Shown here: positions 33,527-61,035 of the stretch, in pieces
Layout: each line of letters starts with the position of its first letter
How positions within the stretch are numbered: position 1 is the stretch's first letter
NCBI GenBank assembly: GCA_965116495.1
Contig: OZ220696.1
Coordinates: forward strand, 3,392,001-3,456,000
DNA: 64,000 nt
Source: Gammaproteobacteria bacterium
GTDB lineage: Bacteria > Pseudomonadota > Gammaproteobacteria > Eutrophobiales > Eutrophobiaceae
Direction: 5' to 3'
Made by a program: the position numbers and the translations under genes
The notes under the pieces: generated by a model
The model's database searches: none
What the model was told of the DNA's origin: nothing
Seen by the model: the letters and a program-made list of their open reading frames with translations, nothing else

Positions 33527-34978
33527 TCAGAAGCTGTACGTGATATCAAAACCAAACAGATTTATCCAGCTGCCGAACGTGAAATCCTCGTCGCTGGTAA
33601 CGTTTGTCAACACACCGGGGCTGTCAAATGCAACTTTGGAGAAACCGCCCATGTTACGGCTCTCACCCGCTTTGATTGTTCGATCCTCGTAGAATACGCC
33701 TTGCCAACCTGCGGTAAGTGTCCAGCCGCGGCCATCTGAATTGGTCAGGTCATACGTGGCGCCGGCGCCTATCCAATGCCGATCACCCGACCAGAACAGG
33801 ACATCAATTGTTTCATCAGGCGCAGTTTCCGGATCATAGCGGTAACCGCCCAGGAGGGTCAGTTGGTCATTCAATCTGTATTGGACTCCTGCAGCAACCG
33901 CCAGGGTATCATCCCCTTCCCAGTCATAAGTCACGCCGGTGACACCATTGAGGGCGGGTCCGACCGGACCGACAAGACCGCTGAGTGGTTCACCGAATTT
34001 TATGTTGGCCCGTTTGCCGACGGCATCCGCGTCCGACCAGAACGTGTACTGCAAATCGACGGACCAGGTAAGCGCGTCATTGATATCGTAAGCAAAGCCG
34101 GCCTTGAGGTGGGCGGGCGTGTCGAAATCCAACTTCCAGGGCACGATTGACTTTCCCAGACCAAGAGGATTGTTGAAATCGATGGTCGCCTCTCCGTCAA
34201 AAGTAGTATCCTGCTCGCTGCGATAGGTCACGCCGATAGTCAGATCATCCGACACATCGTATTTTGCCCCGATGGTAAAGCCGATCTCATCAAAGGCCGG
34301 GTCGAACTGGAACGGAGGAACAAACAGGGGGAAATCCATCTCTGTCTCCAGGAGTATCCGTCCTACTATGAGCTCATTCGGTCCTGTATGGCCACCCAAT
34401 GCTGTGACCGGCACCAGCCTCTCTACAGTCAAATGTTTGAAAGCCACGATATTCAATGCGACGCCCACGTTAAGCCGGTCGGTAACTTCCATGCCTACGA
34501 CCGCCCCTAAATCAACGGTGAAGAAGGCCTGGTTGCTGAAACTGTACCGGTGAACACCCGCATCGTTTTCCCAATCTGCCGTCAAGGCAAACGGTACACC
34601 AAGGCCGACCCCTGCGGTAATCTTTTCACTGAGAGGAAGATAAATGCCTAAACCCGGGGCAGCGGCAATCTCACCGTTAACAGTTGTTGCTTCAACGTCA
34701 TAACTGCCGCCGGAGTCATCCATGGTTAACTGATTCGTGTCTACAAACCTGAGTCCCAGACTGATGACCGGCTTTTTGAATTCTGCAGCCCCGGCAGGAT
34801 TGACATACCAGGTACTTGCGTCTGCGGCAACGCCCTGGGTCGCGCCGGCCAGTGCACCCTCGCGGTTCGACATCCCCATTGTTTGGACGAAATCAGCGGA
34901 GGCACTTGCCGTATAACAGGTCAGTACTACGAGGCCAAACATACGTACAAAATTATTAGCAACTTTATATTTCATCAT
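33527..34978 (-). CDS. FadL/TodX/TbuX-family outer-membrane hydrophobic-compound channel
   Basis: Signal peptide, ALAGA..ADASTWYVNPAG hatch motif, beta-barrel pattern, terminal ITYSF. Confidence 0.88.
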   Translation of the reverse strand: MMKYKVANNFVRMFGLVVLTCYTASASADFVQTMGMSNREGALAGATQGVAADASTWYVNPAGAAEFKKPVISLGLRFVDTNQLTMDDSGGSYDVEATTVNGEIAAAPGLGIYLPLSEKITAGVGLGVPFALTADWENDAGVHRYSFSNQAFFTVDLGAVVGMEVTDRLNVGVALNIVAFKHLTVERLVPVTALGGHTGPNELIVGRILLETEMDFPLFVPPFQFDPAFDEIGFTIGAKYDVSDDLTIGVTYRSEQDTTFDGEATIDFNNPLGLGKSIVPWKLDFDTPAHLKAGFAYDINDALTWSVDLQYTFWSDADAVGKRANIKFGEPLSGLVGPVGPALNGVTGVTYDWEGDDTLAVAAGVQYRLNDQLTLLGGYRYDPETAPDETIDVLFWSGDRHWIGAGATYDLTNSDGRGWTLTAGWQGVFYEDRTIKAGESRNMGGFSKVAFDSPGVLTNVTSDEDFTFGSWINLFGFDITYSF

Positions 34979-35140
34979 CTCCTCCAGGCAAACCATCACA
35001 AGTGTAAAACGATGTTGAAAACAACTTACCAGCGAAAACATACACAATAGTCTTATGGCATACCGAAATATTTGGTTCGATAAAGATTCGGGTGCCGTAG
35101 TTATAATCCTGTCTCATTTATTATTATAATACAATACACA

Positions 35141-35170
35141 TTATACACAATTATCCATTTTTATCCATAA
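35141..35170 (-). promoter_or_regulatory. Phased 10-bp repeats (candidate operator) in fadL/ALDH divergent promoter
   Basis: ttatacacaa-ttatccattt-ttatccataa, reverse complements of TTATGGATAA-like units. Confidence 0.6.
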
Positions 35171-35239
35171 TTAACTATTTTCTGAATAAGAACCCTGTTG
35201 TAATAGGGTATAATACCTAATCATACCTACCCAACAAAA

Positions 35240-36670
35240 ATGAGAGAAAAAATGGAAGCTGATGAGAAAGCAAAAGCACAGAGAGCGGAAGTTGCATCGC
35301 TGATTGAACAGGCAAAGTCTGCCCAGAGGGAAATTGGGAACTACACCCAGCAGCAGGTTGACGAACTTGTCACTGCAATCTGCTGGGCAATAGTGCGCCA
35401 GGACCGTGCTGAAGAGCTTGCCAGGATTGCCGTGGATGAAGGCGGGTTCGGCAACTACGACGACAAGGTGATGAAAATACGCAACCGCTGCATGGGTACG
35501 CTGGCAGACATGCAATCGGTTAAGACAGCCGGGATTATTGAGGAAGATCCTGACAGGGGATTGCTCAAAATCGCCAAGCCGGTTGGCGTGGTTGCGGCAT
35601 TGATACCGACAACCGGTCCGGATGCAACCCCTCCGTTAAAGACGCTGCTGGCGGTAAAGGGCCGCAATGCCATCATCGTTGCCGCCCATCCCCGCACCCA
35701 GCAGACTACCGAGTTGACCGTTAAATATATGCGTGAAGCCTGTGAACAGGCCGGTGTGTCGGCAGACCTGGTGCAGGTGATCCGGAAGCCGTCGCTTGGA
35801 AAGACACAGGCGCTGATGGAGATGGCTGATCTGGTGGTTGCCACAGGCGGCGCCGGCATGGTGAAAGCGGCTTACAGCTCCGGCACGCCGGCCTATGGCG
35901 TCGGCGTTGGCAACAGTGTGCATGTTGTTGATGAAACAGGAGATTTACAGGATGCGGCCAATGCTGTCACGGCTGCAAAAAAGTTTGACTACGCCACGTC
36001 CTGTCTTGCTGATAATGCCGTAATAGCGCATGATACGATTTATGATGATTTTGTCGGCAGGCTGAAAGAGATGGGAGGATATCTTTGCTCAGCCGATGAA
36101 AAAAGGCAGCTACAGGAGTTGATGTGGCCTGATCCTGACAATCATATACCTGCCCTGGAAATTATTGCCAAGCCCGCGACGACTATCGCAAAACTGGCAA
36201 ATATTGAGGTGCCGGATGATTGCGGCTACCTGATTGTGGAAGAGACGGGAGCGGGTCCGGATCATCCTTTCTCGGGAGAGAAGCTTTCTTCAGTGCTGGC
36301 GCTATACAAGTATTCAGGCGAAATAGACAACGCTATTGACCGGATAAATACAATCACAGATTACCAGGGGCAGGGTCATACCTGTGGTATCCATTCAAAG
36401 ACTGAGGAAAACATCATGGCGGTCGCGATGAACACCAAAACAGGCCGCGTCATGATCAACCAGAATCTTAACGAAGGTGCGGGTAGCCCGCGTAACGGGC
36501 TACCCTATACACTAAGCCTTAGTTGCGGTACCTGGGGTGGAAATATCACTACCGAAAATGTCAATGCGCGCCACATGATAAACGAGACCTGGGTATCAAG
36601 GCCCGTTACTCCACGGGCAATAGACGAAGAATCGCTGTTCTCGGAACATTGGGACAAGCATGGAAGGTAG
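35240..36670 (+). CDS. CoA-acylating aldehyde dehydrogenase
   Basis: KPVGVVAALIP, ATGGAGMVKAAYSSG, DYATSC, GEKLS, SCGTWGGN. Confidence 0.9.
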   Translation: MREKMEADEKAKAQRAEVASLIEQAKSAQREIGNYTQQQVDELVTAICWAIVRQDRAEELARIAVDEGGFGNYDDKVMKIRNRCMGTLADMQSVKTAGIIEEDPDRGLLKIAKPVGVVAALIPTTGPDATPPLKTLLAVKGRNAIIVAAHPRTQQTTELTVKYMREACEQAGVSADLVQVIRKPSLGKTQALMEMADLVVATGGAGMVKAAYSSGTPAYGVGVGNSVHVVDETGDLQDAANAVTAAKKFDYATSCLADNAVIAHDTIYDDFVGRLKEMGGYLCSADEKRQLQELMWPDPDNHIPALEIIAKPATTIAKLANIEVPDDCGYLIVEETGAGPDHPFSGEKLSSVLALYKYSGEIDNAIDRINTITDYQGQGHTCGIHSKTEENIMAVAMNTKTGRVMINQNLNEGAGSPRNGLPYTLSLSCGTWGGNITTENVNARHMINETWVSRPVTPRAIDEESLFSEHWDKHGR

Positions 36671-36707
36671 TGAGACAGTGCTGCGACAGTATTCCGGTAA
36701 TGATGGG

Positions 36708-36753
36708 TTATGGACAACATAGATTATGTGTGAGTATGAAAAAATATGGTATA
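36708..36753 (+). promoter_or_regulatory. Candidate operator upstream of the regulator gene
   Basis: ttatggacaa at 36708 and TATG recurring every 10 bp at 36725, 36735 and 36745. Confidence 0.55.
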
Positions 36754-36790
36754 ATTAACCGTTATACAATAATTCTCCTTGAGGGGCCAT

Positions 36791-37591
36791 ATGCCGGCAC
36801 AGAAGAAATTCCTTACTATCACCGAAGCAGCAGATTACCTTAAAGTCAGTAAAACCTCATTGCGACGCTGGACAAACAACGGCCGCCTCGCCTGTTATCG
36901 CGTCGGTCACCGCAATGAACGCCGATTCTTACTCGACGACCTCGTCGCCTTTATGGGTGAATCCATAGATACGGGCGATTATCAGGATGGTTCTCGAATT
37001 ACTGCATCCGACGCAACCCAACCTGTTAACCAAAGCGCCCGGGCCACACGTAAACATATCTGTACTTTTTTCAAGAGTCCCAAAGAACAGTGGGGCCTGT
37101 TGCGGATGCATCTGCTCGATCATCTCAACTCTGAAGCAAAAACCGTCTATATCTATCAACGGGATAAACAGCAACTGTTGAACTGGCTCAGGAACGAAGA
37201 CCTGGACCCGGAAGATTTGATTGATCGTGGCGTACTTGAATTGTATACCGATGCTGATACGTATTTGAAAGACGGCCACTTCAGTACCGATCGTATGTTG
37301 TCCTTCTGGCAGGATATCATTACCAGGCACGAGGCATCCGGCACCAAGAGGTTACTTCTTACGGGTGAGATGGGCTGGGCCAGCAGCGGCGTTATGGGCT
37401 GTGAACAACTGGTTCCGTACGAGGCAGCCCTGGACGCGATGCTGGAAGTTACCCCCTGGGTCAGCGTAATTTGTCAATATCCTGTCTACCAGTTCTCAGG
37501 TTCCACGGTATATGACAATTTGTGCGTACATACACACGTACAATTGGTTGATCGCCTGGACACCGGTTTCAGCCCGATCGGCACAAGCTGA
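36791..37591 (+). CDS. Excisionase-like HTH plus MEDS (DcmR-type sensory) domain regulator
   Basis: LTITEAADYLKVSKTSLRRW..GHRNERRF N-terminus; HICTFF, TGEMGW, YEAALD, ICQY, THV in the C-terminal domain. Confidence 0.85.
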   Translation: MPAQKKFLTITEAADYLKVSKTSLRRWTNNGRLACYRVGHRNERRFLLDDLVAFMGESIDTGDYQDGSRITASDATQPVNQSARATRKHICTFFKSPKEQWGLLRMHLLDHLNSEAKTVYIYQRDKQQLLNWLRNEDLDPEDLIDRGVLELYTDADTYLKDGHFSTDRMLSFWQDIITRHEASGTKRLLLTGEMGWASSGVMGCEQLVPYEAALDAMLEVTPWVSVICQYPVYQFSGSTVYDNLCVHTHVQLVDRLDTGFSPIGTS

Positions 37592-37637
37592 AATTATCGT
37601 ATTACTTACCGGTCCCTGTCCGGACGGTCTGAACGGC

Positions 37638-39982
<2,345 letters not shown>

Positions 39983-40007
39983 TCAATCACGTCTGAAATT
40001 ATCAGGG

Positions 40008-40047
40008 TTATGGATAATTAATTATAGTTATGAATAATTATTTATAC
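40008..40047 (+). promoter_or_regulatory. Phased 10-bp repeats (candidate operator) in xecC/monooxygenase divergent promoter
   Basis: ttatggataa-ttaattatag-ttatgaataa-ttatttatac. Confidence 0.65.
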
Positions 40048-40158
40048 TATAATATAAGCAGTAAGAGATTTCGATAGTCGACTTGAAAAATGAGTGTGTA
40101 ACCCGGGTAGAACAATAACCAAGGATCAAAATTGGTATAGAGAAGGGGGATAAAATCA

Positions 40159-41172
40159 ATGAACGCTGCAAATTTGCCTGGTAATCGGCATTTCACCTGG
40201 TTTAAACCGGAAAGACGCAGACCCACAGATTACGAATCCTACACATTAGGACAACAGTCAGGCCCTCATCAATGGCTGGATGTTGATTGGCCCCTTTGTT
40301 TTGATGATGGTCAAGAGCCTTTCACAGAAGCTGCCTCAGAAATAATATGTACTACCTGGGATCAATTTCGTGATCCCATGAAAGTATGGCAAAGGCCTTA
40401 TGTCTCTCGAAACAACCATGAAGAGCAGGCACTGGACGGCATGACAAAACAGGCTTTGCAGGACGGTGTTGCCGACCGCATCAATCCTGTCTGGCGGGAT
40501 GAAATTCTGGGTAAGTATTATGCAGCATGGCCTTTTGTGGAGTATGGCCAATTTTTAGCGATATGTTATGCAGTACGGCAGGTACTGGATGCAACACTCA
40601 CGTTTTCGTTGGGGTTTCAAGCTACAGATAAAGTGCGCCATCAGCAGGATATTGTGCATCTGATTTTTGATTTAAAGGAAGCGTTACCCGGTTATTCCGA
40701 TGAACAAGCCAGGTCAGCCTGGATGAATTCTCCCGCGCTTGTTCCAACTCGTGAAATAACCGAACGCCTGATCGATTCCGATGACTGGGCGGAGATAGTC
40801 ATTGTTTTGGGGCTGGTGTTCGAGCCGCTCGTCGGAAATTTATTCAAAACCGAATTCATGACCAAGAATGCGCCCATAAATGGGGATGCAGTCACGCCCA
40901 TGATTCTGGCGAATGCGCGGCGTGACTCTAAATATCACCTGCAACTTGTTCAGGCAATTGTCAATATGGTTTTGGCTGACTCAAAACATGGAGCTGACAA
41001 TAAAAAGATTATTGGAAGCTGGCTGGTAAAATGGACACCGCTGTGCGAAACAGCAGCGCAGTCATTGCAAACGGTTTTCGAGATTGATGGAATTGATGCT
41101 GAACCTTTTGAACAGGGATTTACCCGGGTTAAAAACATGCAATCATCGCTGGTACAAGAGCTTGGACTTTAA
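40159..41172 (+). CDS. Alkene monooxygenase hydroxylase beta subunit (AmoA/EtnA-like)
   Basis: WFKPERRRPTDYESYT, WDQFRDP, DKVRHQQD, NGDAVTP; first of the four-gene beta-coupling-alpha-reductase order. Confidence 0.9.
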   Translation: MNAANLPGNRHFTWFKPERRRPTDYESYTLGQQSGPHQWLDVDWPLCFDDGQEPFTEAASEIICTTWDQFRDPMKVWQRPYVSRNNHEEQALDGMTKQALQDGVADRINPVWRDEILGKYYAAWPFVEYGQFLAICYAVRQVLDATLTFSLGFQATDKVRHQQDIVHLIFDLKEALPGYSDEQARSAWMNSPALVPTREITERLIDSDDWAEIVIVLGLVFEPLVGNLFKTEFMTKNAPINGDAVTPMILANARRDSKYHLQLVQAIVNMVLADSKHGADNKKIIGSWLVKWTPLCETAAQSLQTVFEIDGIDAEPFEQGFTRVKNMQSSLVQELGL

Positions 41173-41188
41173 ACGAGGAGATATAATT

Positions 41189-41488
41189 ATGATTTCAAAT
41201 AATAGTGTCGGTATCTCATTGATGAAAAGTGATGAAACACGTGCGACCCTGGAATACCTGGAAGAAAGTGCAAGTGATGCTCGCGTGAGTGATCGTGACT
41301 GTTATTACAAAGTTGAACGTGATAATAAACTTGAATTTGACATGGAAGGGATATCGGATTTCCTGGGCCGTGACCTTGATACGGATATTTTCCTGGTAAA
41401 TATGAGCTCTTACTATGGCCGAATTGTTGTTTCTGATGGAAAAGTTGAAATTTTCTCAGAAATAAAGCCCGAACGCTTCAACGACTGA
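41189..41488 (+). CDS. Alkene monooxygenase coupling protein (MmoB/DmpM family, AmoB/EtnB-like)
   Basis: VGISLMKS, FLVNMSSYYGRIVV; GAGGAG RBS. Confidence 0.9.
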   Translation: MISNNSVGISLMKSDETRATLEYLEESASDARVSDRDCYYKVERDNKLEFDMEGISDFLGRDLDTDIFLVNMSSYYGRIVVSDGKVEIFSEIKPERFND

Positions 41489-41501
41489 TGGGAGAGATTT
41501 A

Positions 41502-43016
41502 ATGACTGCTAATCTGGTGGAAGTACATGAAAAGGCAAAAGATTACGATTGGGATTTTTCGTTTGCGGAAAAAAGGCCGAAGTTTGACACAAAATATAAT
41601 ATCCCGACGAAAGGCAAGGACCCTTTTCGTATGCTGGTGAGGGATTACATGAAGATGGAAGCCGAAAAGGATGATCGCACCCATGGGTTTATCGATGGCG
41701 CGCTGAGGATGGGAATAGCGGAAAAAATGGAACCAAGGTTTAACGAGTGTTTGAAATTGACACTGTTGGACCTGGGCAATGCTGAATATGTGGCAGTTGC
41801 AGCCTGCGGCGGCATTATTTCATCCGTTCAGAACCAGGAACTCAGGCAAGGCTATCATGCGCAGATGCTGGATGAAATTCGTCATACCCAGCTGGAAATG
41901 GCCTTACGTAACTATTATGTAAAGAATGTTCCTGACCCGGCCGGGTGGGATCTTGGACAAAAAGCTCTGTTCCAGCATCCCGGCGGGCTTGTCGCAGTAG
42001 GTGAGTTCCAGCATTTCAATACCGGTGATCCCATAGATTGTATTATTGACCTGAATGTTGTAATTGAAACTGCTTATACCAATATCCTCCTGGTCGCTGC
42101 GCCACAGTCGGCAGTCCTGAATGGCGATCATGCCCTGGCGACAACATTTCTTTCAATTCAATCCGATGAAGCGCGGCATATGGCGAACGGATACGGCTCG
42201 TTGATATCGGTCCTGCGTAATGAGGAGAATGTGCCGTTGGTTAACGACGCCCTTGAACGCCATTTCTGGCATGCGCACAAGGGACTGGATGCGCTGGTCG
42301 GATGGCAGTCTGAATACGGTTCCGTAAATCGTGCATGGGCTTACAGAGATCAATGGCAGGAATGGATTGTCGATGATTTTGTCGGGGGTTACCTGGAAGG
42401 CCTGGGTGAATTCGGCGTAGAAGTGCCGAGGTTTCTGGGAAAGGCCGTGGAAGATCTTGACTGGATGACCCATACCGTCGGTCAGGTATTTTCAGCCATC
42501 TGGCCGCTGAATTTCTGGCGTTCCGATGCCATGAATGAAAAAGACTACGAATGGTTCGAGAAAAATTATCCCGGCTGGCATAAATACTTTGGCGCATACT
42601 GGGATGGCTATAAACAACTGGCGGATCCGGCCGGTGGGCACATCATTTTGCAGGAGTTGGAAAGTCTGCCGCCGATTTGCCAGGTTTGCCAGTTGCCCTG
42701 TGCGCTGCCAAGACTGGATATCAATGAATTCCGCCTGGTTGAAGTCAATGGATCACAGTATCCGACCTGTAGTGAAGGATGTGAATGGGTATTGAGGAAA
42801 TGGCCGAAGGCCTATACCCGGCGCAAGCAGTTCTGGCACAAGTATCACGGCTGGGACCTGGCTGATGTCATTTCAGATCTCGGCTATATCCGCCCTGATG
42901 GTAAAACCCTGATAGGCCAACCTACGGTTTCTCCGGATCAAAAGATGTGGACGATAGATGACATCCGGGCGCTTAGATACGAGGTCAAGGATCCGCTTCA
43001 TGGAGTCTGTCACTGA
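41502..43016 (+). CDS. Alkene monooxygenase hydroxylase alpha subunit (group-4 SDIMO, AmoC/EtnC-like)
   Basis: Di-iron ligands NAEY, DEIRH, ETAYTN, DEARH; KGKDPFR..DYMKMEAEKDDRTHG and YIRPDGKTLIGQP match recalled Rhodococcus AmoC. Confidence 0.93.
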   Translation: MTANLVEVHEKAKDYDWDFSFAEKRPKFDTKYNIPTKGKDPFRMLVRDYMKMEAEKDDRTHGFIDGALRMGIAEKMEPRFNECLKLTLLDLGNAEYVAVAACGGIISSVQNQELRQGYHAQMLDEIRHTQLEMALRNYYVKNVPDPAGWDLGQKALFQHPGGLVAVGEFQHFNTGDPIDCIIDLNVVIETAYTNILLVAAPQSAVLNGDHALATTFLSIQSDEARHMANGYGSLISVLRNEENVPLVNDALERHFWHAHKGLDALVGWQSEYGSVNRAWAYRDQWQEWIVDDFVGGYLEGLGEFGVEVPRFLGKAVEDLDWMTHTVGQVFSAIWPLNFWRSDAMNEKDYEWFEKNYPGWHKYFGAYWDGYKQLADPAGGHIILQELESLPPICQVCQLPCALPRLDINEFRLVEVNGSQYPTCSEGCEWVLRKWPKAYTRRKQFWHKYHGWDLADVISDLGYIRPDGKTLIGQPTVSPDQKMWTIDDIRALRYEVKDPLHGVCH

Positions 43017-43019
43017 CGA

Positions 43020-43336: not shown

Positions 43337-43337
43337 A

Positions 43338-47080: not shown

Positions 47081-47089
47081 AAGGAGGTA

Positions 47090-50660: not shown

Positions 50661-50667
50661 AAAATCA

Positions 50668-52176: not shown

Positions 52177-52183
52177 AGACGGA

Positions 52184-53539
52184 ATGGTTACGCATATCAG
52201 TGATTTCACCATTTACGGTTCGTCATGGACTACGCCCGAAACCAGGGAACTGTTCTCGGAAACAGGCCTGGTGCGCGGTTGGATGGAAGTGATGACCGTC
52301 CTGGCGGAAGCCCAGGCAGAGCACGAATTGATACCTGTTGAAGCGGCCCGGGGGATCCGTACAACTTTCGAGAACTTGGTTGTCGATGAAGAGTTTTTAA
52401 CTGAGGCGGGAGAGGATTTCAGGAAGACCAACCATTCACTGATCGGTCTGATCAAGGCAATGCAAAAGAGATGTGGCGACCCTGGGGAATGGCTGTGCTA
52501 CGGAGCGACGGTTCACGATATTACGGATACCCATATGTGCAGGACCCTGGTTGCCGTCCTGGACCTGTTTGTGAAACGTGTCATACAGGTAGAAAAGTAC
52601 CTTGTTGCGCTGGCCCTGGAACACAAGGACACGGCAATGTGCGGCCGTACCCATGGTCAAATCGGGTTACCTGTCACATTCGGCTACAAGGCCGCGAACT
52701 GGCTTGATGAGTTTGAACGCCACCGGCAGCGGTTGCGTGATATGAGGTTCCGGCTGGCAGTCGGCCAGCTTGCCGGCGGGGTTGGCAGTCTGTCATCCCT
52801 GGGTCCCCGGGCGCAGGCTATCCAGGAGGCGTTTTGCGGGAAGCTGGGTCTTTCGCCGCCACCCATCTCCTGGACGACCACCCGGGACCGTTATGCCGAG
52901 TGGTTGAACAACCTGGCGTTAATTGGCGCCAGCGGGGACCGTATCGGTCAGGAGATTTATAACTTGCAGCGGCCGGAAATCGGTGAGGTCGCCGAGGGTT
53001 TTATCAGCGGCACCGTGGGCAGTATTACCATGCCGCAAAAAAGGAACCCGGAAATATCCGAACACCTGGGCACCTTGTCCCGCCTGGTGCGTCATCATGC
53101 TGCCTGGATGATGGAAAACCTGGTCCATGATCACGAGCGTGACGGCAGGTCGTGGAAAGGTGAGTGGCTGATCATACCGGAGAGCAGCCTGGTAACCGAT
53201 AAAGTGCTGGTATTGCTGCAATCACTGTTGTCGAACCTGGTAGTCAATAAAGAAAGAATGCTGGAGAACCTGGCAGGCACCAACGGCATGATTTATTCGG
53301 AAGCGGTTATGCTTAAACTGTCGGCCAGGACAGGTAAACAGACAGCCCACCGGTATGTTTATGACTGCGCCATGCAGGCGCACGAAACAGGCCGTCACCT
53401 GAAAACGATCCTGGTTGAGGATGCGGATGTCGCGCAATGGCTCAGCCCCGCTGAACTGGATGAATGCTTTGAATTGAACAACAGCACAGGTCATTGTTCC
53501 GCCATGGTGGAGCGGATGGTCGCAGGGATAGATTTGTAA
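52184..53539 (+). CDS. Adenylosuccinate-lyase-like enzyme (XcbD-like)
   Basis: GATVHDITDT, GRTHGQ, GSITMPQKRNP, HDHERD. Confidence 0.85.
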   Translation: MVTHISDFTIYGSSWTTPETRELFSETGLVRGWMEVMTVLAEAQAEHELIPVEAARGIRTTFENLVVDEEFLTEAGEDFRKTNHSLIGLIKAMQKRCGDPGEWLCYGATVHDITDTHMCRTLVAVLDLFVKRVIQVEKYLVALALEHKDTAMCGRTHGQIGLPVTFGYKAANWLDEFERHRQRLRDMRFRLAVGQLAGGVGSLSSLGPRAQAIQEAFCGKLGLSPPPISWTTTRDRYAEWLNNLALIGASGDRIGQEIYNLQRPEIGEVAEGFISGTVGSITMPQKRNPEISEHLGTLSRLVRHHAAWMMENLVHDHERDGRSWKGEWLIIPESSLVTDKVLVLLQSLLSNLVVNKERMLENLAGTNGMIYSEAVMLKLSARTGKQTAHRYVYDCAMQAHETGRHLKTILVEDADVAQWLSPAELDECFELNNSTGHCSAMVERMVAGIDL

Positions 53540-54543
53540 TGAGTTCATCATTTGACGATATCATCAATAAAATCCCGCGCTACCACCTGGCCCGGTATCC
53601 CACTCCACTGATACAGGCCGAACTGCTACGAAAGGAAATCGGAGGACCGGATATCTGGTTCAAACGGGACGATTTAATCAGTTTCGCCATGGGTGGCAAC
53701 AAGGTGCGCGGACTGGAGGTGATATTGCAGGATGCAGTAAATAACCGCGCCGACACCCTGGTCACCGGCGCCGGCGTGCAGTCCAACCATGTCCGGGCAA
53801 CCGCCGCAGTCGCCGCCTACAAAAAACTGGACTGTGTCGCCATTTACTGGGGTGATGAGCCGGGGTCGGTCGATGGAAATTATCGTGTAACGAAAATGCT
53901 CGGCGCAGAGATTCGATTCACCGGAAACCCCGAAAGGAGTTCAGTTGACGGCTATATCAGTGCCGTGGCAGACGATCTGAAAAGTCGGGGAAAGCGTCCT
54001 TATCCCATACCGAGGGGCGGCGCTTGTGCCATGGGGGCGCTGGGCCATGTCATCGCAGTGCGGGAACTCCAGTTACAATGCGAACAATACGGTATCGAAC
54101 CGGACGCAATCGTCTTTCCATTGGGCTCCGGCGGCACTTACGCCGGTTGGTTGTTGGGACTGCGGTTGCTTGGGCTTGACTGGCAGATAGAATGCTTTAC
54201 GGTCAGTAGAGAGCCGGATGAAGTGGCCGGGCAGGTCGCAATACTGGCAACGGAAGCGGCAAGCCTGCTTGATATGGATATCAGCTTCACAAAGGCAGAC
54301 GCGCCGGTTCATGGCGGCTTCATAGGTGAGGGTTACGGAATCCCGAGCCCCGAAGGCGCTGCAGCAATTCGGACTACGAGCAGATCTGCAGGGCTGCTTC
54401 TGGATCCTACCTATACAGGCAAGGCCATGGCCGGCTACCTCGATGGCTTGCATCGGGGAAAATTCAATCACTACCAAACCGTAGTATTCATTCATACCGG
54501 CGGTGAACCGGCATTTTTTGCCGGTGACGGGGAATGGCTATGA
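53539..54543 (+). CDS. PLP-dependent D-cysteine desulfhydrase-family enzyme (XcbE-like)
   Basis: KRDD, GGNKVR, QSNH, GSGGT, LDPTYTGK, FIHTGG. Confidence 0.88.
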   Translation: MSSSFDDIINKIPRYHLARYPTPLIQAELLRKEIGGPDIWFKRDDLISFAMGGNKVRGLEVILQDAVNNRADTLVTGAGVQSNHVRATAAVAAYKKLDCVAIYWGDEPGSVDGNYRVTKMLGAEIRFTGNPERSSVDGYISAVADDLKSRGKRPYPIPRGGACAMGALGHVIAVRELQLQCEQYGIEPDAIVFPLGSGGTYAGWLLGLRLLGLDWQIECFTVSREPDEVAGQVAILATEAASLLDMDISFTKADAPVHGGFIGEGYGIPSPEGAAAIRTTSRSAGLLLDPTYTGKAMAGYLDGLHRGKFNHYQTVVFIHTGGEPAFFAGDGEWL

Positions 54544-54660: not shown

Positions 54661-56712
54661 ATGAGCGGTTGGGCTGAGCGCCTGCTATGCGCAGACCACG
54701 TCGCAGTCATCGGTGCATCCGCTACCGAGGGGAAACTCGGTTATCTTTTCATGCAAAATCTTGTCCATGCCTATCCGGGAAACATCTATCCCATCAACCC
54801 GAAACAGGACCGGATACTCGGGCTTCAGACATACCCGTCCGTTAAAGAAACCCCGGTCCCGGTGGACCTGGCGATTCTGACCACGCCTCCCGGCGCTGCG
54901 CCGCAGATAATCGAAGAATGTGTTGCAGCAGGGGTTGCAACAGCCGTGATTATCAGCGGCGGTTTTGCAGAGATCGGTAACAAGGGAATTGAGCTGGAAC
55001 AGGCGGTTGCAGAAATCGCAAAAAAAGGACGGTTACGCCTGTTGGGCCCCAACTGCTTCGGCGTAATTAACACACACCTGGGGTTGAATGCTTCTCTGGG
55101 GCTGGGTCTGCCCGAGAAAGGCGGGGTGTCGTTGATTACCCAGAGCGGCGCGTACGGCATGGCCGCGTTTACCCGTTCAAAACTGGGAGAAATCGGGTTC
55201 GCCAAGGTGATCGCACCGGGCAACAAAATAGATATTAACGAAATCGAACTGCTTTCCTACCTGCGCGATGACCCTGACACGCGGGTCATTGCCATGCTGA
55301 TAGAATCCATAACTGACGGGCGCGCATTATTCGAAGAGATAAACCTGACCACGGAAACCAAGCCGGTAGTTATATTAAAGACCGGCAGGACCGGCTCGGG
55401 GCAACGCGCCGCCGCCAGCCACACCGCGGCGCTTGCCGGTGATTACGCGGTAACGGCGGCGGCACTGCGCCAGGCCGGCGCGCACTTGGTAACCGACGGC
55501 CAGACCCTGCTGGATACCGCGGCGGCGCTGGACAAGCAACCGTTCCACGAGGGAAAACGCGTGGCAATCATCACCAACTCGGGTGGGACAGGAGTCGAGT
55601 TGACCGATTTGCTAACCGATTACGGTCTTGAAGTGCCTGCCTTATCAGGGGGATTACAGGAGGAAATAAGCGCTTTTTTACCTGATCAGGGCAGCGCGGT
55701 AAACCCGGTCGACGTCACTACCCAATGGCACCGCTTTACCGAGATGTACGGTTCGGCAATCCGGTTGTTAACGGAATCTGATGAAGTTGATATTATTTTG
55801 CCCGTCCTGCTGCAACGTTCGGCAATAATGCCCGAAGTCACCGAGCGTGTCATACGGGAATACCAGTCGGCAAAAGCCGGGAACAAGGCTAAACCCGTGC
55901 ATGTCTGCTGGGTCGCCGGACCCGAGGCGGACAATAACAAAAAGAAACTGCAGGACAGCGGAATCCCGGTCCACCCCTGGCCGCTGCGCACGGCCAAAAC
56001 CATCGCCGCCTGTATCGGCTCCAGGCCCGGGAATGTCGGGGCCAGTCCGGACAAGCGTCCCCGCCCTGACCGGGTTTGCGCTAATGAATGGGTACCGATG
56101 GACCTTGCATTGACTCTTATTCAGGAAGAGGGGATTAATACAGCCCGCTGGTATTATGTAAACGGAGCAGCCGAACTGCATTCTGTCAGCAAAAGCGCGG
56201 CTTACCCCCTGGTGATTAAAGCCATACGCCCGGATTTGATACATAAATCCGATGCCGGGGCGGTCAAGGTCGGAATTTCTTCAGCGCAAGAGTTGATGTC
56301 AACAGCCGCTGAAATGGAATCCCTGTTCGGCAGCGGGCCTTTCCTGGTGCAGCAGCAGGTAACGGCCGGCGTGGAGTTGTTGCTGGGAGCAACCCGGGAT
56401 GACAATTTCGGGCTGGTTATAACGTTCGGCATCGGCGGTACAATGGTGGAAGTGCTTAAAGACGTAGCATTGCGTCTTGCGCCGGTCAGCGTGGAAATGG
56501 CGCATGAGATGCTGGATGAAATAAAGGGCCGGCAACTGCTGGATGGCTACCGGGGTAACGCGCCGGTTAACCGGGATGCACTTGCCCGGGTGATCGCTGG
56601 TTTTTCCCGGTGGATAGATGAATCGGCCTGGATTGAGCAGGTTGACATGAACCCGGTCATCGCCCACGGGGATGAGTTGACCGTGGTCGATGTGAGAATA
56701 CTTGCCGGATGA
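54661..56712 (+). CDS. ADP-forming acyl-CoA synthetase (acetate-CoA ligase family, fused alpha/beta)
   Basis: VIGAS, ISGGFAE, GPNCFG, SHTAALAG, NSGG, NPVD, HKSDAGAV ATP-grasp. Confidence 0.9.
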   Translation: MSGWAERLLCADHVAVIGASATEGKLGYLFMQNLVHAYPGNIYPINPKQDRILGLQTYPSVKETPVPVDLAILTTPPGAAPQIIEECVAAGVATAVIISGGFAEIGNKGIELEQAVAEIAKKGRLRLLGPNCFGVINTHLGLNASLGLGLPEKGGVSLITQSGAYGMAAFTRSKLGEIGFAKVIAPGNKIDINEIELLSYLRDDPDTRVIAMLIESITDGRALFEEINLTTETKPVVILKTGRTGSGQRAAASHTAALAGDYAVTAAALRQAGAHLVTDGQTLLDTAAALDKQPFHEGKRVAIITNSGGTGVELTDLLTDYGLEVPALSGGLQEEISAFLPDQGSAVNPVDVTTQWHRFTEMYGSAIRLLTESDEVDIILPVLLQRSAIMPEVTERVIREYQSAKAGNKAKPVHVCWVAGPEADNNKKKLQDSGIPVHPWPLRTAKTIAACIGSRPGNVGASPDKRPRPDRVCANEWVPMDLALTLIQEEGINTARWYYVNGAAELHSVSKSAAYPLVIKAIRPDLIHKSDAGAVKVGISSAQELMSTAAEMESLFGSGPFLVQQQVTAGVELLLGATRDDNFGLVITFGIGGTMVEVLKDVALRLAPVSVEMAHEMLDEIKGRQLLDGYRGNAPVNRDALARVIAGFSRWIDESAWIEQVDMNPVIAHGDELTVVDVRILAG

Positions 56713-56719
56713 TGAGAGA

Positions 56720-58084
56720 ATGATGGCAGAACGACTGGTAATAGTAGGGGGAGTCGCCGCAGGCGCCAAGGCGGCTGCCAAAGCCCGGAGAATGAGGCCG
56801 GACCTGGATATTGTCGTGTACCAGGATGAAACGGAAGTCTCCTATTCGGCATGCGGTCAACCCTATGTATTGAGCGGCGTCATTGAAAACAGGGATAAAA
56901 TCATCATTCGCCGTCCGCAGGAGTTTGCCGGCGATAATATCCGTGTCCTTACCCGGCACCAGGTCGAAGCCATCGACGTAGCAACCCGGCAGGTACGGGT
57001 CAACGACCTGTCCGGAAACGGCGTGCAGACAACTGCTTATGACAAGCTCATCCTGGCAACCGGCGCCAGGCCGGTAATTCCGGCCGTTGACGGAATTGAA
57101 CTGGAAGGCGTGTTGACGCTTCGATCCATATCCGACCTGGACAGGTTCAAGTCGGCCATAAGTATCCTGAAACCGAAAAAAGCCGCGATCATCGGGGCGG
57201 GATATATCGGTCTGGAACTGGCCGAGACCTTCCATGCGCTGAATATAACAACGGCCATCATCGAAAAGTTTGGCCGGATCCTGCCGAAATTCGACGGGGA
57301 AATGGCGCAGCAGGTCAGCGCTCACCTGGTGGAAAATGGTGTTGAACTCGTAACGGGAGATGGGTTGGCAGGGATTGGCGGGCATAATGGCAGGGTGGCT
57401 TCGGTCACCACGGAATCGGGATTGAGCAGGGACGTCGACCTGGTGGTGATTGCCATCGGGGTCAGGCCCAATACGGACCTGGCGCGGGACGGCGGAATTG
57501 CAACCGGTGAAACGGGGGCCATCGCAGTCGACAAAAAAATGCAGACCCGGGTTCCGGGTGTGTATGCCGCGGGCGATTGCTGTGAGACTATTGACCGGGT
57601 CACCGGAAAAACCACCTGGTTGCCGTTGGGTGATATTGCCAACCTGCAGGGCAGGGTTGCCGGCGAGAATGCCGCGGGGGGTAATGCCAGTTTCCCCGGC
57701 GTGCTGGGTACCGCCATATTCAAGACTTTTGATCTCAATGTTGCCTGCACCGGGTTGTCCGAGACCTCAGCCCGGCAAGCGGGCTATGAGGCCGTGTCCA
57801 TCAATGTGAACCGGTCCGACCGTGCGCGCTATTATCCGGGCGGCAGCAGTCTGGCGATAAAACTGGTTGCCGACAAACAGGGCGGCCGGTTGCTGGGCGC
57901 CCAGGTTATCGGACCGGGCAAGGCCGACAAGATGATAGACATTGCCGCGACTGCTCTTCTCGGCAGGTTGACCTGCGGGGACCTGGAGAACGCGGACCTG
58001 GCCTACGCACCGCCGTTCAGCCCGGTGTTATCTCCGATGATAACGGCGGCAGGCGCCCTCAACAGCAAAGTCGGTAACAGGTGA
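56720..58084 (+). CDS. CoA-disulfide reductase / NADH oxidase family flavoprotein
   Basis: GGVAAGAKAAAKARR, single-Cys SYSACG, GAGYIGLE, AAGDC, LAYAPPFS. Confidence 0.9.
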   Translation: MMAERLVIVGGVAAGAKAAAKARRMRPDLDIVVYQDETEVSYSACGQPYVLSGVIENRDKIIIRRPQEFAGDNIRVLTRHQVEAIDVATRQVRVNDLSGNGVQTTAYDKLILATGARPVIPAVDGIELEGVLTLRSISDLDRFKSAISILKPKKAAIIGAGYIGLELAETFHALNITTAIIEKFGRILPKFDGEMAQQVSAHLVENGVELVTGDGLAGIGGHNGRVASVTTESGLSRDVDLVVIAIGVRPNTDLARDGGIATGETGAIAVDKKMQTRVPGVYAAGDCCETIDRVTGKTTWLPLGDIANLQGRVAGENAAGGNASFPGVLGTAIFKTFDLNVACTGLSETSARQAGYEAVSINVNRSDRARYYPGGSSLAIKLVADKQGGRLLGAQVIGPGKADKMIDIAATALLGRLTCGDLENADLAYAPPFSPVLSPMITAAGALNSKVGNR

Positions 58085-59145
58085 AACTGAACTTCATCAG
58101 CCTGGTTTTTGCCGCGGTTTTTTTCTACGTTTCCCCGGTCAACGTCGCGGCTGCGGACAAACCTGTTACCGTCCCGGTTCTCGTCGCACCGTTTAACGCC
58201 GGTCCGCTTGCCGGTGACACGATATTAATGAACCGGATGATCCAGGGACGGCATGCCGTTGTCCTCCTGCCCCAGGAGACCCCCGGGTATATCTACAACA
58301 TCCGCGCGATGAAGAACCCGGAAAACTGGGGTACGACGCTGTTCAATACCGAAGATACGATTATCCAGTTGGCGTTCCATGGCGGGTCGGATGAACTGAA
58401 GGAGTTTTTGCCGGAAAAAATCGCTATCAGGTTCAAGTTGCTCTACTGCGAAGCCTGGTGGGGTGGGGGGAAGGTTTTCATTACCTACGAGGAAACTGTC
58501 AGCAGCCTGTCCCAACTGCAGGGCAAACAGGTTTCAATCGGCCTGAGAAGTCAAAGTGACAGGGGCGTATATCCAAGGTTATTTCTTGAACACGGTTACC
58601 GGGTGACGCCCGAAAATACGGATATCCGCCACCTGACACCGGTCGCCCTGTCACAACAACTGATCGATGGCGTCACGGATGTGGCCGCAGGCAGTTTCGG
58701 CACCGAACCCGGCCGCAACCACTGGTTGATCCAGCAGGTGGTACGCAAGATAGAGGCCGCCGGAAAAAAAATGTACTACCTGGGAATCGAAAAAGAGGTC
58801 GTGGAAAAACTGAACATGAAGTTCGGTACCACCTGGATGCCGATAGAGTTGCCGGCAGGGACCCTGCCGCACCAGGATGGACCGTTGCCTTCGGCCATAA
58901 ACCGGGGATACAAAGCGTCCCACCCTGATTTCCCTGAAGAGCTTGCCTACCATATAATCATGACCATCGCCCGGTTGGGGCCGGAAATGAAAAAATACCA
59001 TGCGATCTGGAAGTTGTGGTCTCCGCAACTGATGCTGAGCGGATTAACGGAGGAAAACGTTCATCCGGGGGCCAGACGCGCATACCGGGAACTGGGTTGG
59101 TGGGAAGACCGTAACCGTGAATTTCCGGTTACCTACCCGCGCTAG
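58081..59145 (+). CDS. TAXI-type TRAP solute-binding protein (divergent)
   Basis: Signal peptide, ETPG..NI, L.QLQGK.VSIG, HPGARRAYRELG; precedes a fused permease. Confidence 0.75.
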   Translation: MKLNFISLVFAAVFFYVSPVNVAAADKPVTVPVLVAPFNAGPLAGDTILMNRMIQGRHAVVLLPQETPGYIYNIRAMKNPENWGTTLFNTEDTIIQLAFHGGSDELKEFLPEKIAIRFKLLYCEAWWGGGKVFITYEETVSSLSQLQGKQVSIGLRSQSDRGVYPRLFLEHGYRVTPENTDIRHLTPVALSQQLIDGVTDVAAGSFGTEPGRNHWLIQQVVRKIEAAGKKMYYLGIEKEVVEKLNMKFGTTWMPIELPAGTLPHQDGPLPSAINRGYKASHPDFPEELAYHIIMTIARLGPEMKKYHAIWKLWSPQLMLSGLTEENVHPGARRAYRELGWWEDRNREFPVTYPR

Positions 59146-59163
59146 AAACTTGTTAAGTTACCC

Positions 59164-59190
59164 GTCATTCCCGCGCACGCGGGAATCCAG
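59164..59190 (+). repeat. REP-like palindrome
   Basis: gtcattcccgcgcacgcgggaatccag, one mismatch from the copy inside lhr. Confidence 0.85.
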
Positions 59191-59211
59191 TCACACATTT
59201 ACCTTATCCTC

Positions 59212-61035
59212 ATGTCCATCGATTGGCATAAAACCCGCGCCGTCATCCAATTCCTGTTTGTAACAACCGGCGTGCTGCTGTCCGCATCCATCGCGGTTGC
59301 ACTATTCGGTTATGTTCGCAGTTCTCCCGCCCATTACTCAAGCTTCGTGCTCGGCATCGTCATCATGTCAGGTCTGCTCGGCCTGCGAAACCTGCTGGAT
59401 GAGCACCTGCAGGACAACAGGGGCAGGTACTTTCACGTCAAAAGTGTCGTTGCCGTTGCCGGTTTTATCCTGGCTGCAACAGGCGCCGTCTACATCCGTT
59501 ACAACGTATCAAGGCTGGAGCTGATCCAGCCGTTTTTTGAGAACATCGACGTGGTTTACGGTTTGATTTTTACGGCCGGGATCCTGTTGCTCACCATGCT
59601 GCACTGGGGGCTCTTGCTTACCTCTATTATCGCAATGGCAATCGTCTATTTTTTTTACGGCCACCATATCGATAACGTCCTGTTTACCCATCCGCACTAC
59701 CAGACCGGCTTTGTTATGAACTATATCGGGCTGGGAACCACACAGGGCTTTTTCCTGTTGACGCAACTGGCCGCCGACAGTATTTATTTCCTGCTCATCT
59801 ATGCCAGTGTGCTGATCAGTATCGGCGCATTGCAGATGGCGCTGGAACTGGGCAAGGTATCAGGTAAAAAGGTGGCAGGTGGCGCCGCTTATCCGGCGAT
59901 CCTGGGCAGCGGGATCGTCGCCTCGGTGATGGGGCAGGCCGTATCCAACGTGGTGCTTACCGGCCGGTTTACCATACCCATGATGAAAAAAAACGGTTAT
60001 TCCGCGTCAATGGCCGGAGCTATAGAAGCGGTAGCCTCTACCGCGGGCCAGCTCATGCCGCCAATTCTGGGCTTGGCGGGTTTTTTGATCGCCGCGTTGC
60101 TCAACATTCCCTATATAAAGGTTGCAGGCGCCGCACTGTTACCGGCGTTGCTGTTTTTAACCGGCATATTCATCAGCGTGTCGCTATACGCAAGACGGCA
60201 ACAGATCCCGAAGCTGACTGATAATTTTGATGCCGGAAGCGTTATCAGGATTGCGCCTACTTTTGTTGTTTCGTTTGCCGTTGTCCTGATCATGTTGCTG
60301 ATGCACTACTCCCCATCCATCGCAGGGATGTGCGGGATCGCCGCTGCGTTGGCTCTGTCCATGTTCCAGGGCAGGTACAGGCCGACAGCAAAAAAGATTT
60401 TCGGCGCGCTGGAGGAAGGGTTCGTGCTCGTTACGCTGTTGTCGTTGCTGATTATCGCCATCGGTCCCCTTGGACAGACCATGATCACAACGAATTTATC
60501 CGGACGTCTCGGTTCAGTCCTGGTCAATATCCTGCCGGATGCCCCGTTACTTCTGCTGGTCGGGGCCATGGTCATCACGCTCATACTGGGCATGGGCCTG
60601 CCTACCCCCGTCGCTTACGTCGTGACGGCCCTTGCAGTGGTGCCGTTTCTGCAGCAACTGGGGTTCCCTGCGTTTCAGTCGCACTTCTTCGTGTTTTATT
60701 TTGCCGTGTTCTCAACGCTGACGCTGCCCATTGCCGTTGGGGTGCTGGCTGCGGCCAAACTGGCCGGCTCCAGGTTCATCCCCACCGCCGTCAATGCGTT
60801 AAAATTGACTTTTCCGGTTTTTCTTATTCCCTTCGCGGTGATCTACAACCCGGAACTCTCCATGATTGACGACTGGACCTGGCGCACGCCTGTGTTGTTC
60901 GCAGCCCTGGTTGTTATCCAGGCATGCATTGCAGCCGCTATATTCGGTCCGGCCTCCGGACATTCCAGGCCGGCTCAGCGGGCATTCCTCCTGCTTGTTT
61001 CCTTAGCGGGCTTTTATTTCTTGTTTTTGAGCTGA
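59212..61035 (+). CDS. TRAP transporter fused 4TM/12TM permease (TAXI type)
   Basis: TGRFTIPMMKK.GY..AGAIEAVASTAGQLMPP, LGMGLPT..AY, HFFVFYFA. Confidence 0.9.
   Translation: MSIDWHKTRAVIQFLFVTTGVLLSASIAVALFGYVRSSPAHYSSFVLGIVIMSGLLGLRNLLDEHLQDNRGRYFHVKSVVAVAGFILAATGAVYIRYNVSRLELIQPFFENIDVVYGLIFTAGILLLTMLHWGLLLTSIIAMAIVYFFYGHHIDNVLFTHPHYQTGFVMNYIGLGTTQGFFLLTQLAADSIYFLLIYASVLISIGALQMALELGKVSGKKVAGGAAYPAILGSGIVASVMGQAVSNVVLTGRFTIPMMKKNGYSASMAGAIEAVASTAGQLMPPILGLAGFLIAALLNIPYIKVAGAALLPALLFLTGIFISVSLYARRQQIPKLTDNFDAGSVIRIAPTFVVSFAVVLIMLLMHYSPSIAGMCGIAAALALSMFQGRYRPTAKKIFGALEEGFVLVTLLSLLIIAIGPLGQTMITTNLSGRLGSVLVNILPDAPLLLLVGAMVITLILGMGLPTPVAYVVTALAVVPFLQQLGFPAFQSHFFVFYFAVFSTLTLPIAVGVLAAAKLAGSRFIPTAVNALKLTFPVFLIPFAVIYNPELSMIDDWTWRTPVLFAALVVIQACIAAAIFGPASGHSRPAQRAFLLLVSLAGFYFLFLS

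Follow-up and report, generated by a model that had tools for sequence, protein, structure and literature searches.

An intact gene cluster for a predicted propene-type alkene pathway with its own coenzyme M supply, linked to a copper membrane monooxygenase in an uncultured marine gammaproteobacterium

We describe a chromosomal gene cluster for alkene oxidation and epoxide conversion from an uncultured marine gammaproteobacterium, located at positions 33527-61035 of the 64,000-nucleotide stretch analyzed here (the window; G000:C1:3392001-3456000, part of one contig of 4,341,124 bp). The cluster is probably – we put this at about three chances in four – an intact, single-copy set for a pathway in which propene-type alkenes would be converted to epoxides and these, with self-made coenzyme M (CoM) and CO2, likely to acetoacetate. 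The monooxygenase AmoABCD would epoxidize the alkene, as suggested by retained di-iron ligands and by the 81% identity of its AmoC to the propene-induced AmoC of the isolate PE-TB08W, and an epoxyalkane:CoM transferase (EaCoMT) of XecA type (69% identity to XecA) would add CoM to both epoxide enantiomers. Two 2-hydroxypropyl-CoM dehydrogenases (R-HPCDH and S-HPCDH), judged by orthology and specificity residues, would oxidize the enantiomers of 2-hydroxypropyl-CoM to 2-ketopropyl-CoM, and an oxidoreductase/carboxylase of 2-ketopropyl-CoM (2-KPCC) with a full catalytic set is predicted to cleave the thioether reductively and carboxylate the enolate to acetoacetate. XcbABCDE, by family membership, would supply the CoM.

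Every gene listed for this block is an open reading frame (ORF) with a clear family assignment in a profile search of the window ORFs, and each pathway gene is present once in the genome (tblastn, whole genome), for which completeness is 99.52% and contamination 1.14%. The cluster gene order recurs in four independently assembled, related metagenome-assembled genomes (MAGs), the synteny that the original prediction for this locus had proposed to look for, and all cluster frames are open and 80-100% identical to their counterparts there. A 10,349-nt contig from sequencing run X6 covers window positions 39512-48014, and the repeated gene order and this bridging contig rule out an assembly chimera, which had been named as a possible flaw. 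Parts of the stretch are found in 20 runs from eight studies, and in one of four runs examined (X10, labeled 'sponge metagenome') the contigs are 95-97% alike. The original prediction, made from the sequence alone, had placed a four-gene monooxygenase, xecA, xecC, both dehydrogenases, a CoM block, uptake systems and a regulator in one block, and all of these are present as open frames at or within the positions it gave. Its CoM block is led by xcbA, however, and not by comA, and it had passed over an XecB-like zinc-ribbon protein, a CoA-transferase pair, an acyl-CoA synthetase and a CoADR-like flavoprotein.

The monooxygenase genes amoA (hydroxylase beta subunit; 40159-41172, plus strand; PF02332, E 5.7e-55), amoB (coupling/effector protein; 41189-41488, plus; PF02406, E 1e-23, matching from ORF residue 40), amoC (hydroxylase alpha subunit; 41502-43016, plus) and amoD (2Fe-2S/FAD/NAD reductase; 43338-44357, plus; PF00111, PF00970 and PF00175) have the beta-coupling-alpha-reductase layout of group-4 soluble di-iron monooxygenases (SDIMOs) across 40159-44357, with a miniature inverted-repeat transposable element (MITE) between alpha subunit and reductase. 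The amoB ORF opens at 41084, and the Met at 41189 is its likely start. AmoC shares 81% identity with its PE-TB08W namesake, 67% with PmoC from Mycobacterium sp. M156, 67.5% with the Mycolicibacterium chubuense NBB4 enzyme encoded on pMYCCH.01, and 55% with EtnC of Nocardioides sp. JS614 and of NBB4 pMYCCH.02; the values are 43, 38 and 35% for the enzymes from M. dioxanotrophicus PH-06, R. ruber YYL and Methylocella tundrae, respectively, where the gene orders differ. Positions E95, E125xxH128, E189 and E223xxH226 are invariant in all eight aligned alpha subunits, and we take these to be the di-iron ligands (two E...ExxH sets).

A 2025 review sets the threshold for group 4 at 50% alpha-subunit identity with other members (PMC11825192), a value that AmoC exceeds. 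A phylogeny of 48 alpha subunits was built from the window, 18 of 20 loci, 23 of 120 listed proteins (four of them named), three plasmid-borne group-4 references and three outgroups, leaving aside L019 (38% identical, cut) and L020 (partial). AmoC forms a clade with the four gammaproteobacterial MAGs, one other protein and PE-TB08W (SH-aLRT 99), within the propene-monooxygenase part of group 4, where its neighbors are sequences of MAGs with the titles Kofleriaceae and Polyangiaceae; the Etn sequences form a clade of their own, and the outgroups lie far off. By identity and tree AmoC is assigned to the propene-monooxygenase subgroup of group 4 and not to group 5 or 6, the alternative placement that would have told against the original prediction. 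The same review counts 22 group-4 sequences, with PE-TB08W the sole non-actinobacterial one as far as the available text goes (PMC11825192). The 19 loci with alpha identity of at least 61% comprise, by title, four Gammaproteobacteria, two Myxococcota, one Chloroflexota and 12 Actinomycetota. Two loci outside Actinomycetota, L005 (titled Kofleriaceae) and L006 (titled Polyangiaceae), contain amoA, amoB and amoC with an alpha identity of 73%, amoD being matched only in L005, and no CoM or epoxide genes are present within 10 kb on either side. Elsewhere in the genome studied here are two distant SDIMO-like alpha genes (G000:C1 ~578462 and ~585260; 25% identical to amoC), accompanied by reductase-like genes at ~581923 and ~587064; these are probably phenol/toluene-type enzymes.

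The genes for the epoxide-converting enzymes lie on both sides of amoABCD. 2-KPCC (XecC type; 38387-39961, minus strand; PDB 1MO9, E 1.3e-241) is a disulfide oxidoreductase (DSOR) assigned as an orthologue of the Xanthobacter enzyme, to which it is 65% identical by tblastn. Alignment to 1MO9 shows that it retains the equivalents of R56, C82, H84, C87, H137, M140, R365, F501 and H506, the first seven of which are presumably catalytic. The Phe501-His506 pair replaces the usual His-Glu dyad of DSOR enzymes, and mutagenesis described in the available part of one report shows that it excludes protons and promotes carboxylation (PMC8358701). This Phe-His dyad is present in all 11 2-KPCC homologues with the C-terminus covered (four gammaproteobacterial MAGs, Xanthobacter autotrophicus Py2, NBB4 and five further loci from MAGs; one more homologue, in L020, is cut).

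R-HPCDH (XecD type; 37638-38390, minus; PDB 2CFC, E 1.3e-102) retains R152 and R196 relative to 2CFC, residues given as the sulfonate ligands of R-HPCDH in the part of the source available (PMC11199699). S-HPCDH (XecE type; 46122-46892, plus; PDB 4GH5, E 7.3e-74) has Met at the R152 position and retains the sole RxxK pair of the 4GH5 chain (R225/K228, chain numbering), the sulfonate pair. By these residues the two short-chain dehydrogenases are assigned as separate R- and S-HPCDH orthologues rather than duplicates. Retention of all the 2-KPCC carboxylase residues and of the R/S specificity residues supports a propene-type, CO2-fixing pathway, which is what the original prediction had proposed.

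The EaCoMT gene (44471-45691, likely start 44579, plus) encodes a protein 69.2% identical to Py2 XecA (2-hydroxypropyl-CoM lyase), 49% to the JS614 enzyme and 46% to that of NBB4. An H-x-C motif and a C-terminal Cys, both visible in the sequence, are candidate zinc ligands of a MetE-family epoxyalkane:CoM transferase. It is followed by a gene for a 64-residue XecB-like zinc-ribbon protein (45777-45971, plus; PF09723, E 2.7e-8, just under the cut-off), which is 76-100% identical in all four MAGs and 49% identical to a protein in the xecA-xecC gap of Py2. All five CoM synthesis proteins score above their NCBIfam cut-offs and are encoded on the plus strand in one block with the order seen in Py2: xcbA (48887-49801; 475.6 bits, cut-off 150), xcbB/comA (49794-50660; 295.1 bits, cut-off 280), xcbC (50617-52176; 648.4 bits, cut-off 575), xcbD (52133-53539; 643.6 bits, cut-off 600) and xcbE (53494-54543; 510.8 bits, cut-off 450).

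The cluster is a mosaic in which the epoxide and CoM enzymes are Xanthobacter-like (EaCoMT 69%, Xcb proteins 45-58%) and the monooxygenase is of actinobacterial type. Py2 plasmid pXAUT01 has xecA-(xecB)-xecC-xecD-xecE-xcbABCDE with identical catalytic residues, and the identities of the window proteins to XecA, B, C, D and E and XcbA, B, C, D and E are 69, 49, 65, 62, 62, 58, 56, 46, 45 and 53%, respectively. In Py2 the alkene monooxygenase is a six-gene group-1 enzyme and the system is plasmid-borne, whereas the window has a four-gene group-4 monooxygenase on a chromosome and its xec genes in two divergent units. The pmo clusters of NBB4 (pMYCCH.01) and Mycobacterium sp. M156 encode PmoABCD with alpha subunits 67-68% identical to AmoC and share several companions with the window, namely 2-KPCC with the Phe-His dyad, two short-chain dehydrogenases, a CoA-transferase pair, a CoA-binding synthetase, a CoADR-like protein and comA. 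They differ in their actinobacterial plasmid setting, in epoxide enzymes that are only 39-51% identical, and in having no FadL, TRAP, XecB or copper membrane monooxygenase (CuMMO) in the 25 kb fetched.

The closest described system is that of PE-TB08W, a cultured marine isolate of the Halieaceae (Suzuki et al. 2019), compared here by sequence for AmoC and otherwise by description. The available part of its report (PMC6440738), on which all statements here about this isolate rest, describes growth on propene, 1-butene and n-butane, induction by propene of amoC and of the EaCoMT, 2-KPCC and both HPCDH genes, and a recombinant EaCoMT that consumes epoxypropane and epoxyethane. As in the window, a four-gene group-4 amoABCD, an XecA-type EaCoMT, 2-KPCC, R- and S-HPCDH and CoM genes lie close together, and this cluster too is described as a mosaic, with a monooxygenase like those of actinobacteria and epoxide genes like those of Xanthobacter (PMC6440738). 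The gene order differs: EaCoMT, S-HPCDH, CoM genes, 2-KPCC, R-HPCDH, seven truncated genes and amoABCD in PE-TB08W (PMC6440738), as against xecD-xecC divergent from amoABCD-xecA-xecB-xecE-CoA-transferase-xcbABCDE here, the divergent layout having been recognized in the original prediction. That prediction had also anticipated that novelty would lie in the host and accessory genes rather than the core chemistry, and the shared building blocks of PE-TB08W agree with this (PMC6440738). Its proviso that the cluster might already be characterized in a close relative holds in part, PE-TB08W having the same blocks and an alpha subunit 81% identical, but in another order. The core chemistry is known; the gene order and the host genus are new, and so, as far as the literature searched goes, is the physical link to a divergent CuMMO.

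Four genes in the cluster form a companion module: an acylating aldehyde dehydrogenase (SauS/EutE-like; 35240-36670, plus; NF047625 SauS, 512 bits, under the 600-bit cut-off), a two-subunit CoA-transferase (47090-48016 and 48006-48866, plus; PF01144, E 7.4e-26 for subunit A), a fused alpha-beta ADP-forming acyl-CoA synthetase (54661-56712, plus; PF13549, PF13607 and PF13380) and a CoADR/NADH-oxidase-family flavoprotein (56702-58084, plus; TIGR03385, 411.5 bits, under the 578.8-bit cut-off). Because these proteins score under the NCBIfam equivalog cut-offs, their names hold at family level only. The best PDB match of the flavoprotein is 6RUZ (E 5.4e-115), and with its motif SYSACGQPY it keeps the single redox Cys of the family. 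The CoA-transferase subunits are 51% and 43-44% identical to the pairs in the JS614 and NBB4 alkene clusters, and the synthetase is 42-46% identical to its homologues there; both loci contain the pair, the synthetase and a CoADR-like flavoprotein. The cluster of Methylohalobius crimeensis lists all four companions, including a SauS-like aldehyde dehydrogenase, and the set has been proposed, without proof, to carry epoxyethane to acetyl-CoA in those clusters (PMC11507031). The module most likely either activates an acid product (acetoacetate) to its CoA thioester or would serve as a C2 branch from epoxyethane to acetyl-CoA.

The companion genes raise the possibility that the segment serves mainly for ethene, with a CuMMO or AmoABCD forming epoxyethane, which EaCoMT, one of the dehydrogenases and the companions would convert to acetyl-CoA with no carboxylation. 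The M. crimeensis 13-gene epoxyethane cluster matches the window in EtnE, a short-chain dehydrogenase, CoA-transferase A and B, CoM genes, synthetase, a sulfoacetaldehyde-dehydrogenase-like aldehyde dehydrogenase, a CoADR-like protein, a MEDS regulator and a divergent DSOR, and the organism has a CuMMO; it differs in having no alkene monooxygenase, a single short-chain dehydrogenase and a particulate methane monooxygenase (pMMO) located elsewhere, and is read as a detoxification cluster (PMC11507031). The ethene locus of JS614 (EtnEABCD, pNOCA01) likewise shares group-4 gene order, EaCoMT, the CoA-transferase pair, the ADP-forming synthetase, a CoADR-like protein and xcb genes with the window. 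Ethene-using marine Gammaproteobacteria, Haliea ETY-M and ETY-NAG, have a pMMO-like (emo) monooxygenase (PMC4036023), and in ethene-growing ETY-M the CuMMO is linked and co-transcribed with EaCoMT (PMC4036023; PMC6440738, available part); the likeness to the window is by description rather than sequence, and unlike the window these strains are reported without genes resembling those for soluble methane monooxygenase (sMMO). The PE-TB08W EaCoMT also converts epoxyethane well (PMC6440738). Nevertheless, selection has retained a full carboxylase-type 2-KPCC and both stereospecific dehydrogenases in five species, neither of which an achiral C2 substrate would require. The alpha subunit groups with propene monooxygenases and not with EtnC, and the JS614 alpha subunit, only 55% identical and in the separate Etn clade, belongs to a locus whose fetched 31 kb contain one short-chain dehydrogenase and no orthologue of 2-KPCC. 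PE-TB08W itself is reported, as far as the available text goes, not to grow on ethene (PMC6440738). A cluster devoted mainly to ethene is therefore unlikely, although it retains a real chance.

The cluster occupies the left 28 kb of a larger accessory segment that reaches from about 33412 to window-coordinate 78638 (about 45 kb), extends 14.6 kb past the window end and includes a CuMMO there; the 27.5-kb extent originally proposed falls well short of this. Homology to the carrier-free genomes G049 and G052 breaks off at window 32770-32779 and is picked up again at window-coordinate 78639; in place of the segment they have about 4.5 kb, which in the annotated G049 encodes a TonB receptor, a nitrilase-family protein and an AraC regulator. 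A 129-bp 3′ remnant of an AraC-family gene (33283-33411, no strand assigned; 86% identical to the AraC gene end at L034 13161-13289 in G049) marks the left edge just before the FadL terminator. The rest of the left junction is filled by a toxin-antitoxin-like gene pair at 32805-33223 on the minus strand, whose HicA-like product (72 aa) scores below the Pfam cut-off and whose HicB-like product (65 aa) exceeds it. The ORFs of the segment that were scanned include no integrase or transposase, and the two junctions share no word of 11 nt or longer, i.e. there are no flanking direct repeats. 'Island' here thus means an accessory segment: its presence and absence among species is seen, and the hallmarks of a mobile element are not.

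Collinearity with the full segment order is seen in G050 and G056, as it is in G040 over the part retrieved. Carriers (the window genome G000, G037, G040, G050 and G056) make up five of 23 genomes of the genus, and the same five of 126 in the family. Among these five the alpha subunit is 94-100% identical; at E<=1e-50 it is matched in 6/126 family genomes, the sixth (G105, another genus) being only 38% identical. EaCoMT is found in the five carriers alone (5/126). XmoB of the CuMMO is 92-100% identical in the carriers and matched at E<=1e-20 in 6/126 genomes, the sixth, G119, being 52% identical, and among the 23 genomes of the genus the multicopper oxidase occurs in these five carriers alone. 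The core flanks are more widespread, with the left FAD monooxygenase present in 21 of 23 genus genomes and CarB in 22. In CarB, a single gene, the non-carriers G055 and G048 are 92% identical to the window genome versus 90% for carriers; by this one gene non-carriers appear at least as close as carriers, and the distribution of the segment would be patchy.

The CuMMO genes lie on the minus strand in the region past the window end (L033, of which 519-3528 corresponds to G000:C1:3456519-3459528), with xmoC at L033 2671-3528, xmoA at 1819-2565 and xmoB at 519-1748. XmoC, XmoA and XmoB, in the order C-A-B, score above the Pfam and NCBIfam cut-offs. Comparison with PDB entries gives higher scores to pMMO than to ammonia monooxygenase, and an 'HGE' following the XmoB signal peptide and an 'HxH' align with the copper site of PmoB in the pMMO structure 6CXH. 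The nearest outside relatives of XmoA are 57-58% identical, one 98% cluster aside. The gene directly following xmoB (63823 to window-coordinate 64437, minus) encodes a secreted protein of 204 aa that has a signal peptide and is anchored by a membrane helix at its C-terminus; it has no Pfam or NCBIfam family, and a PmoD-like copper protein is our guess. The xmoCAB array ends in a multicopper oxidase gene (62054-63751, minus; PF07732/PF07731) and one for a 252-aa cupredoxin-like protein (61306-62064, minus). At the far side, genes for COX2-like, COX1-like and SCO1/SenC proteins, a 188-aa ORF and DUF2231 lie in a row on the minus strand (L033 10352-14568; G000:C1:3466352-3470568), so that copper and haem-copper accessory genes reach L033 14568. 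Comparison of the COX1-like protein with PDB sequences gave no match at 1e-5, and from gene order we presume a likeness of COX2-COX1-SenC to norSY-senC. Between DUF2231 and xmoC, on the minus strand, are genes for several unassigned proteins, for a MutS-related ATPase and YcxB, and for a GSDH-like beta-propeller protein. The norSY-senC set (sNOR, a B-type haem-copper oxidase) occurs in ammonia oxidizers according to the available part of one source (PMC6967387).

The segment may hold two unrelated hydrocarbon oxygenases, the iron-dependent group-4 SDIMO and a copper-dependent CuMMO with its own copper-supply genes, both feeding one CoM epoxide pathway; we offer this as a tentative possibility, with the odds against it. 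It could take the form of a metal-dependent switch like that between sMMO and pMMO in methanotrophs, or of a division of substrates, the CuMMO taking ethene (as in Haliea ETY-M) and the iron enzyme propene or butene (as in PE-TB08W). PE-TB08W itself differs in having no pmo-like gene by Southern blot or PCR in the part of its report available (PMC6440738). Titles and abstract beginnings in the literature gave no description of such an alkene/epoxide island linked to a CuMMO, and nothing on an alkene monooxygenase together with sponge and coenzyme M.

A CuMMO acting on alkanes or ammonia could instead give the CoM pathway the chief role of detoxifying co-oxidation epoxides, as proposed for methanotrophs. 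The CuMMO genes are in the same segment, XmoA, XmoB and XmoC exceed the cut-offs of the NCBI bacterial Amo models, and detoxification has been argued for M. crimeensis (PMC11507031). This role is very unlikely here, given that a dedicated alkene monooxygenase immediately precedes EaCoMT on one and the same strand and that the predicted product, acetoacetate, is a growth substrate; the hydroxylamine dehydrogenase family also has no match in the genome, though the control genomes were silent too.

That AmoABCD is in practice a hydroxylase of alkanes such as n-butane, with the epoxide genes as side equipment, is more improbable still. PE-TB08W does grow on n-butane and has EaCoMT and 2-KPCC transcripts on butane (PMC6440738, available part), but the segment contains no recognized alcohol dehydrogenase, and the SauS-like acylating enzyme is the sole aldehyde dehydrogenase in it, which leaves no complete alcohol/aldehyde route evident; group-4 enzymes are, moreover, described as alkene-focused in the available part of the review (PMC11825192).

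The MITE (43020-43337, between the amoC stop and the amoD start, no strand assigned) measures 318 bp and has terminal inverted repeats of 22 bp that match perfectly, together with an apparent TA duplication; it is missing from all four related MAGs and from the X6 and X10 contigs (the latter 4,419 nt). Its family has 71 matches in the genome and is also represented in the window at ~29941-30253. The X6 contig likewise skips a 189-bp insertion at 46893-47081 (no strand assigned), which contains half a MITE copy (83% match to MITE positions 3-111). An 85-aa frame within the MITE, orf85 (43066-43323), was considered as a fifth monooxygenase subunit and rejected; it has no counterpart in any of the four relatives and is not a gene. 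Decay of the cluster in this strain, with the two genome-specific insertions, one of them between amoC and amoD, having made the monooxygenase non-functional, is hardly credible with both insertions intergenic, the amoD start codon intact and all frames open at 80-100% identity to relatives.

Several points weigh against the propene-type pathway. The substrate range is not readable from sequence, and PE-TB08W also uses n-butane. The companion module is the set proposed for epoxyethane conversion to acetyl-CoA, and together with the adjacent CuMMO (compare Haliea) it could make ethene the main or an additional substrate. The alpha-subunit tree is a quick maximum likelihood version, and none of the 20 runs containing part of the stretch is on record as RNA. 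Finally, the amoC-amoD gap is 321 nt here versus 0-13 nt in the four MAGs, and this spacing may lower or uncouple synthesis of the reductase in this strain.

The remaining genes of the cluster would serve uptake and regulation. A FadL/TodX-family outer-membrane channel (33527-35047, minus; PF03349, E 3.9e-41; 91-94% identical in all four MAG loci) would admit hydrophobic substrate, and a TAXI solute-binding protein (58081-59145, plus; 47.8 bits to the TAXI model, under the cut-off) and a fused TRAP permease (59212-61035, plus; TIGR02123, 326.7 bits, cut-off 320.65), retained in G040, G050 and G056, would form a second uptake system. A protein with helix-turn-helix and MEDS domains (36779-37591, plus; PF14417, E 2.3e-34; PF12728, E 5.3e-13) is the candidate regulator. 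The divergent xecC-amoA intergenic region (39962-40158, 197 bp, AT-rich, no strand assigned) is the presumed control region and has sigma-70-like hexamers on both strands, although the overall scan is not above chance. Across 33000-48000 there are 25 sigma-70 matches versus 18.7 expected (sd 4.4) and 24 terminator matches versus 15.0 expected (sd 4.2), neither clearly above chance, and we therefore cite only two long hairpins, a strong terminator-like one at 33435-33465 by the FadL/TodX gene and one with a 15-bp stem at 45714-45746, 3′ of the EaCoMT gene. A sigma-54 promoter before amoA, as claimed for PE-TB08W, was rejected: there is no site near 39962-40158, and matches across the window number 19 versus 37.7 expected.

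In the left flank, the carB ORF (11479-14799) opens about 25-33 codons upstream of the match starts in all 21 relatives, and the true start probably lies downstream of the ORF opening. Genes for a PIN-domain protein and its DUF7662 partner (1422-2249, minus) and a Fic/DOC protein (3138-3536) lie beside one for an Lhr helicase and are defense- or addiction-like.

The known range of group-4 alkene monooxygenases is widened by a gammaproteobacterial clade of five species, with relatives in MAGs labeled Myxococcota and Chloroflexota. The rare CO2-fixing chemistry of 2-KPCC and bacterial CoM synthesis would thereby be placed in uncultured marine bacteria, a possible marine sink for ethene and propene. 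Stereoselective enzymes from a Gram-negative host may also be easier to express than their actinobacterial counterparts. Iron and copper monooxygenases coupled to one epoxide pathway would offer a testable case for metal- or substrate-dependent choice of oxygenase outside the methanotrophs.

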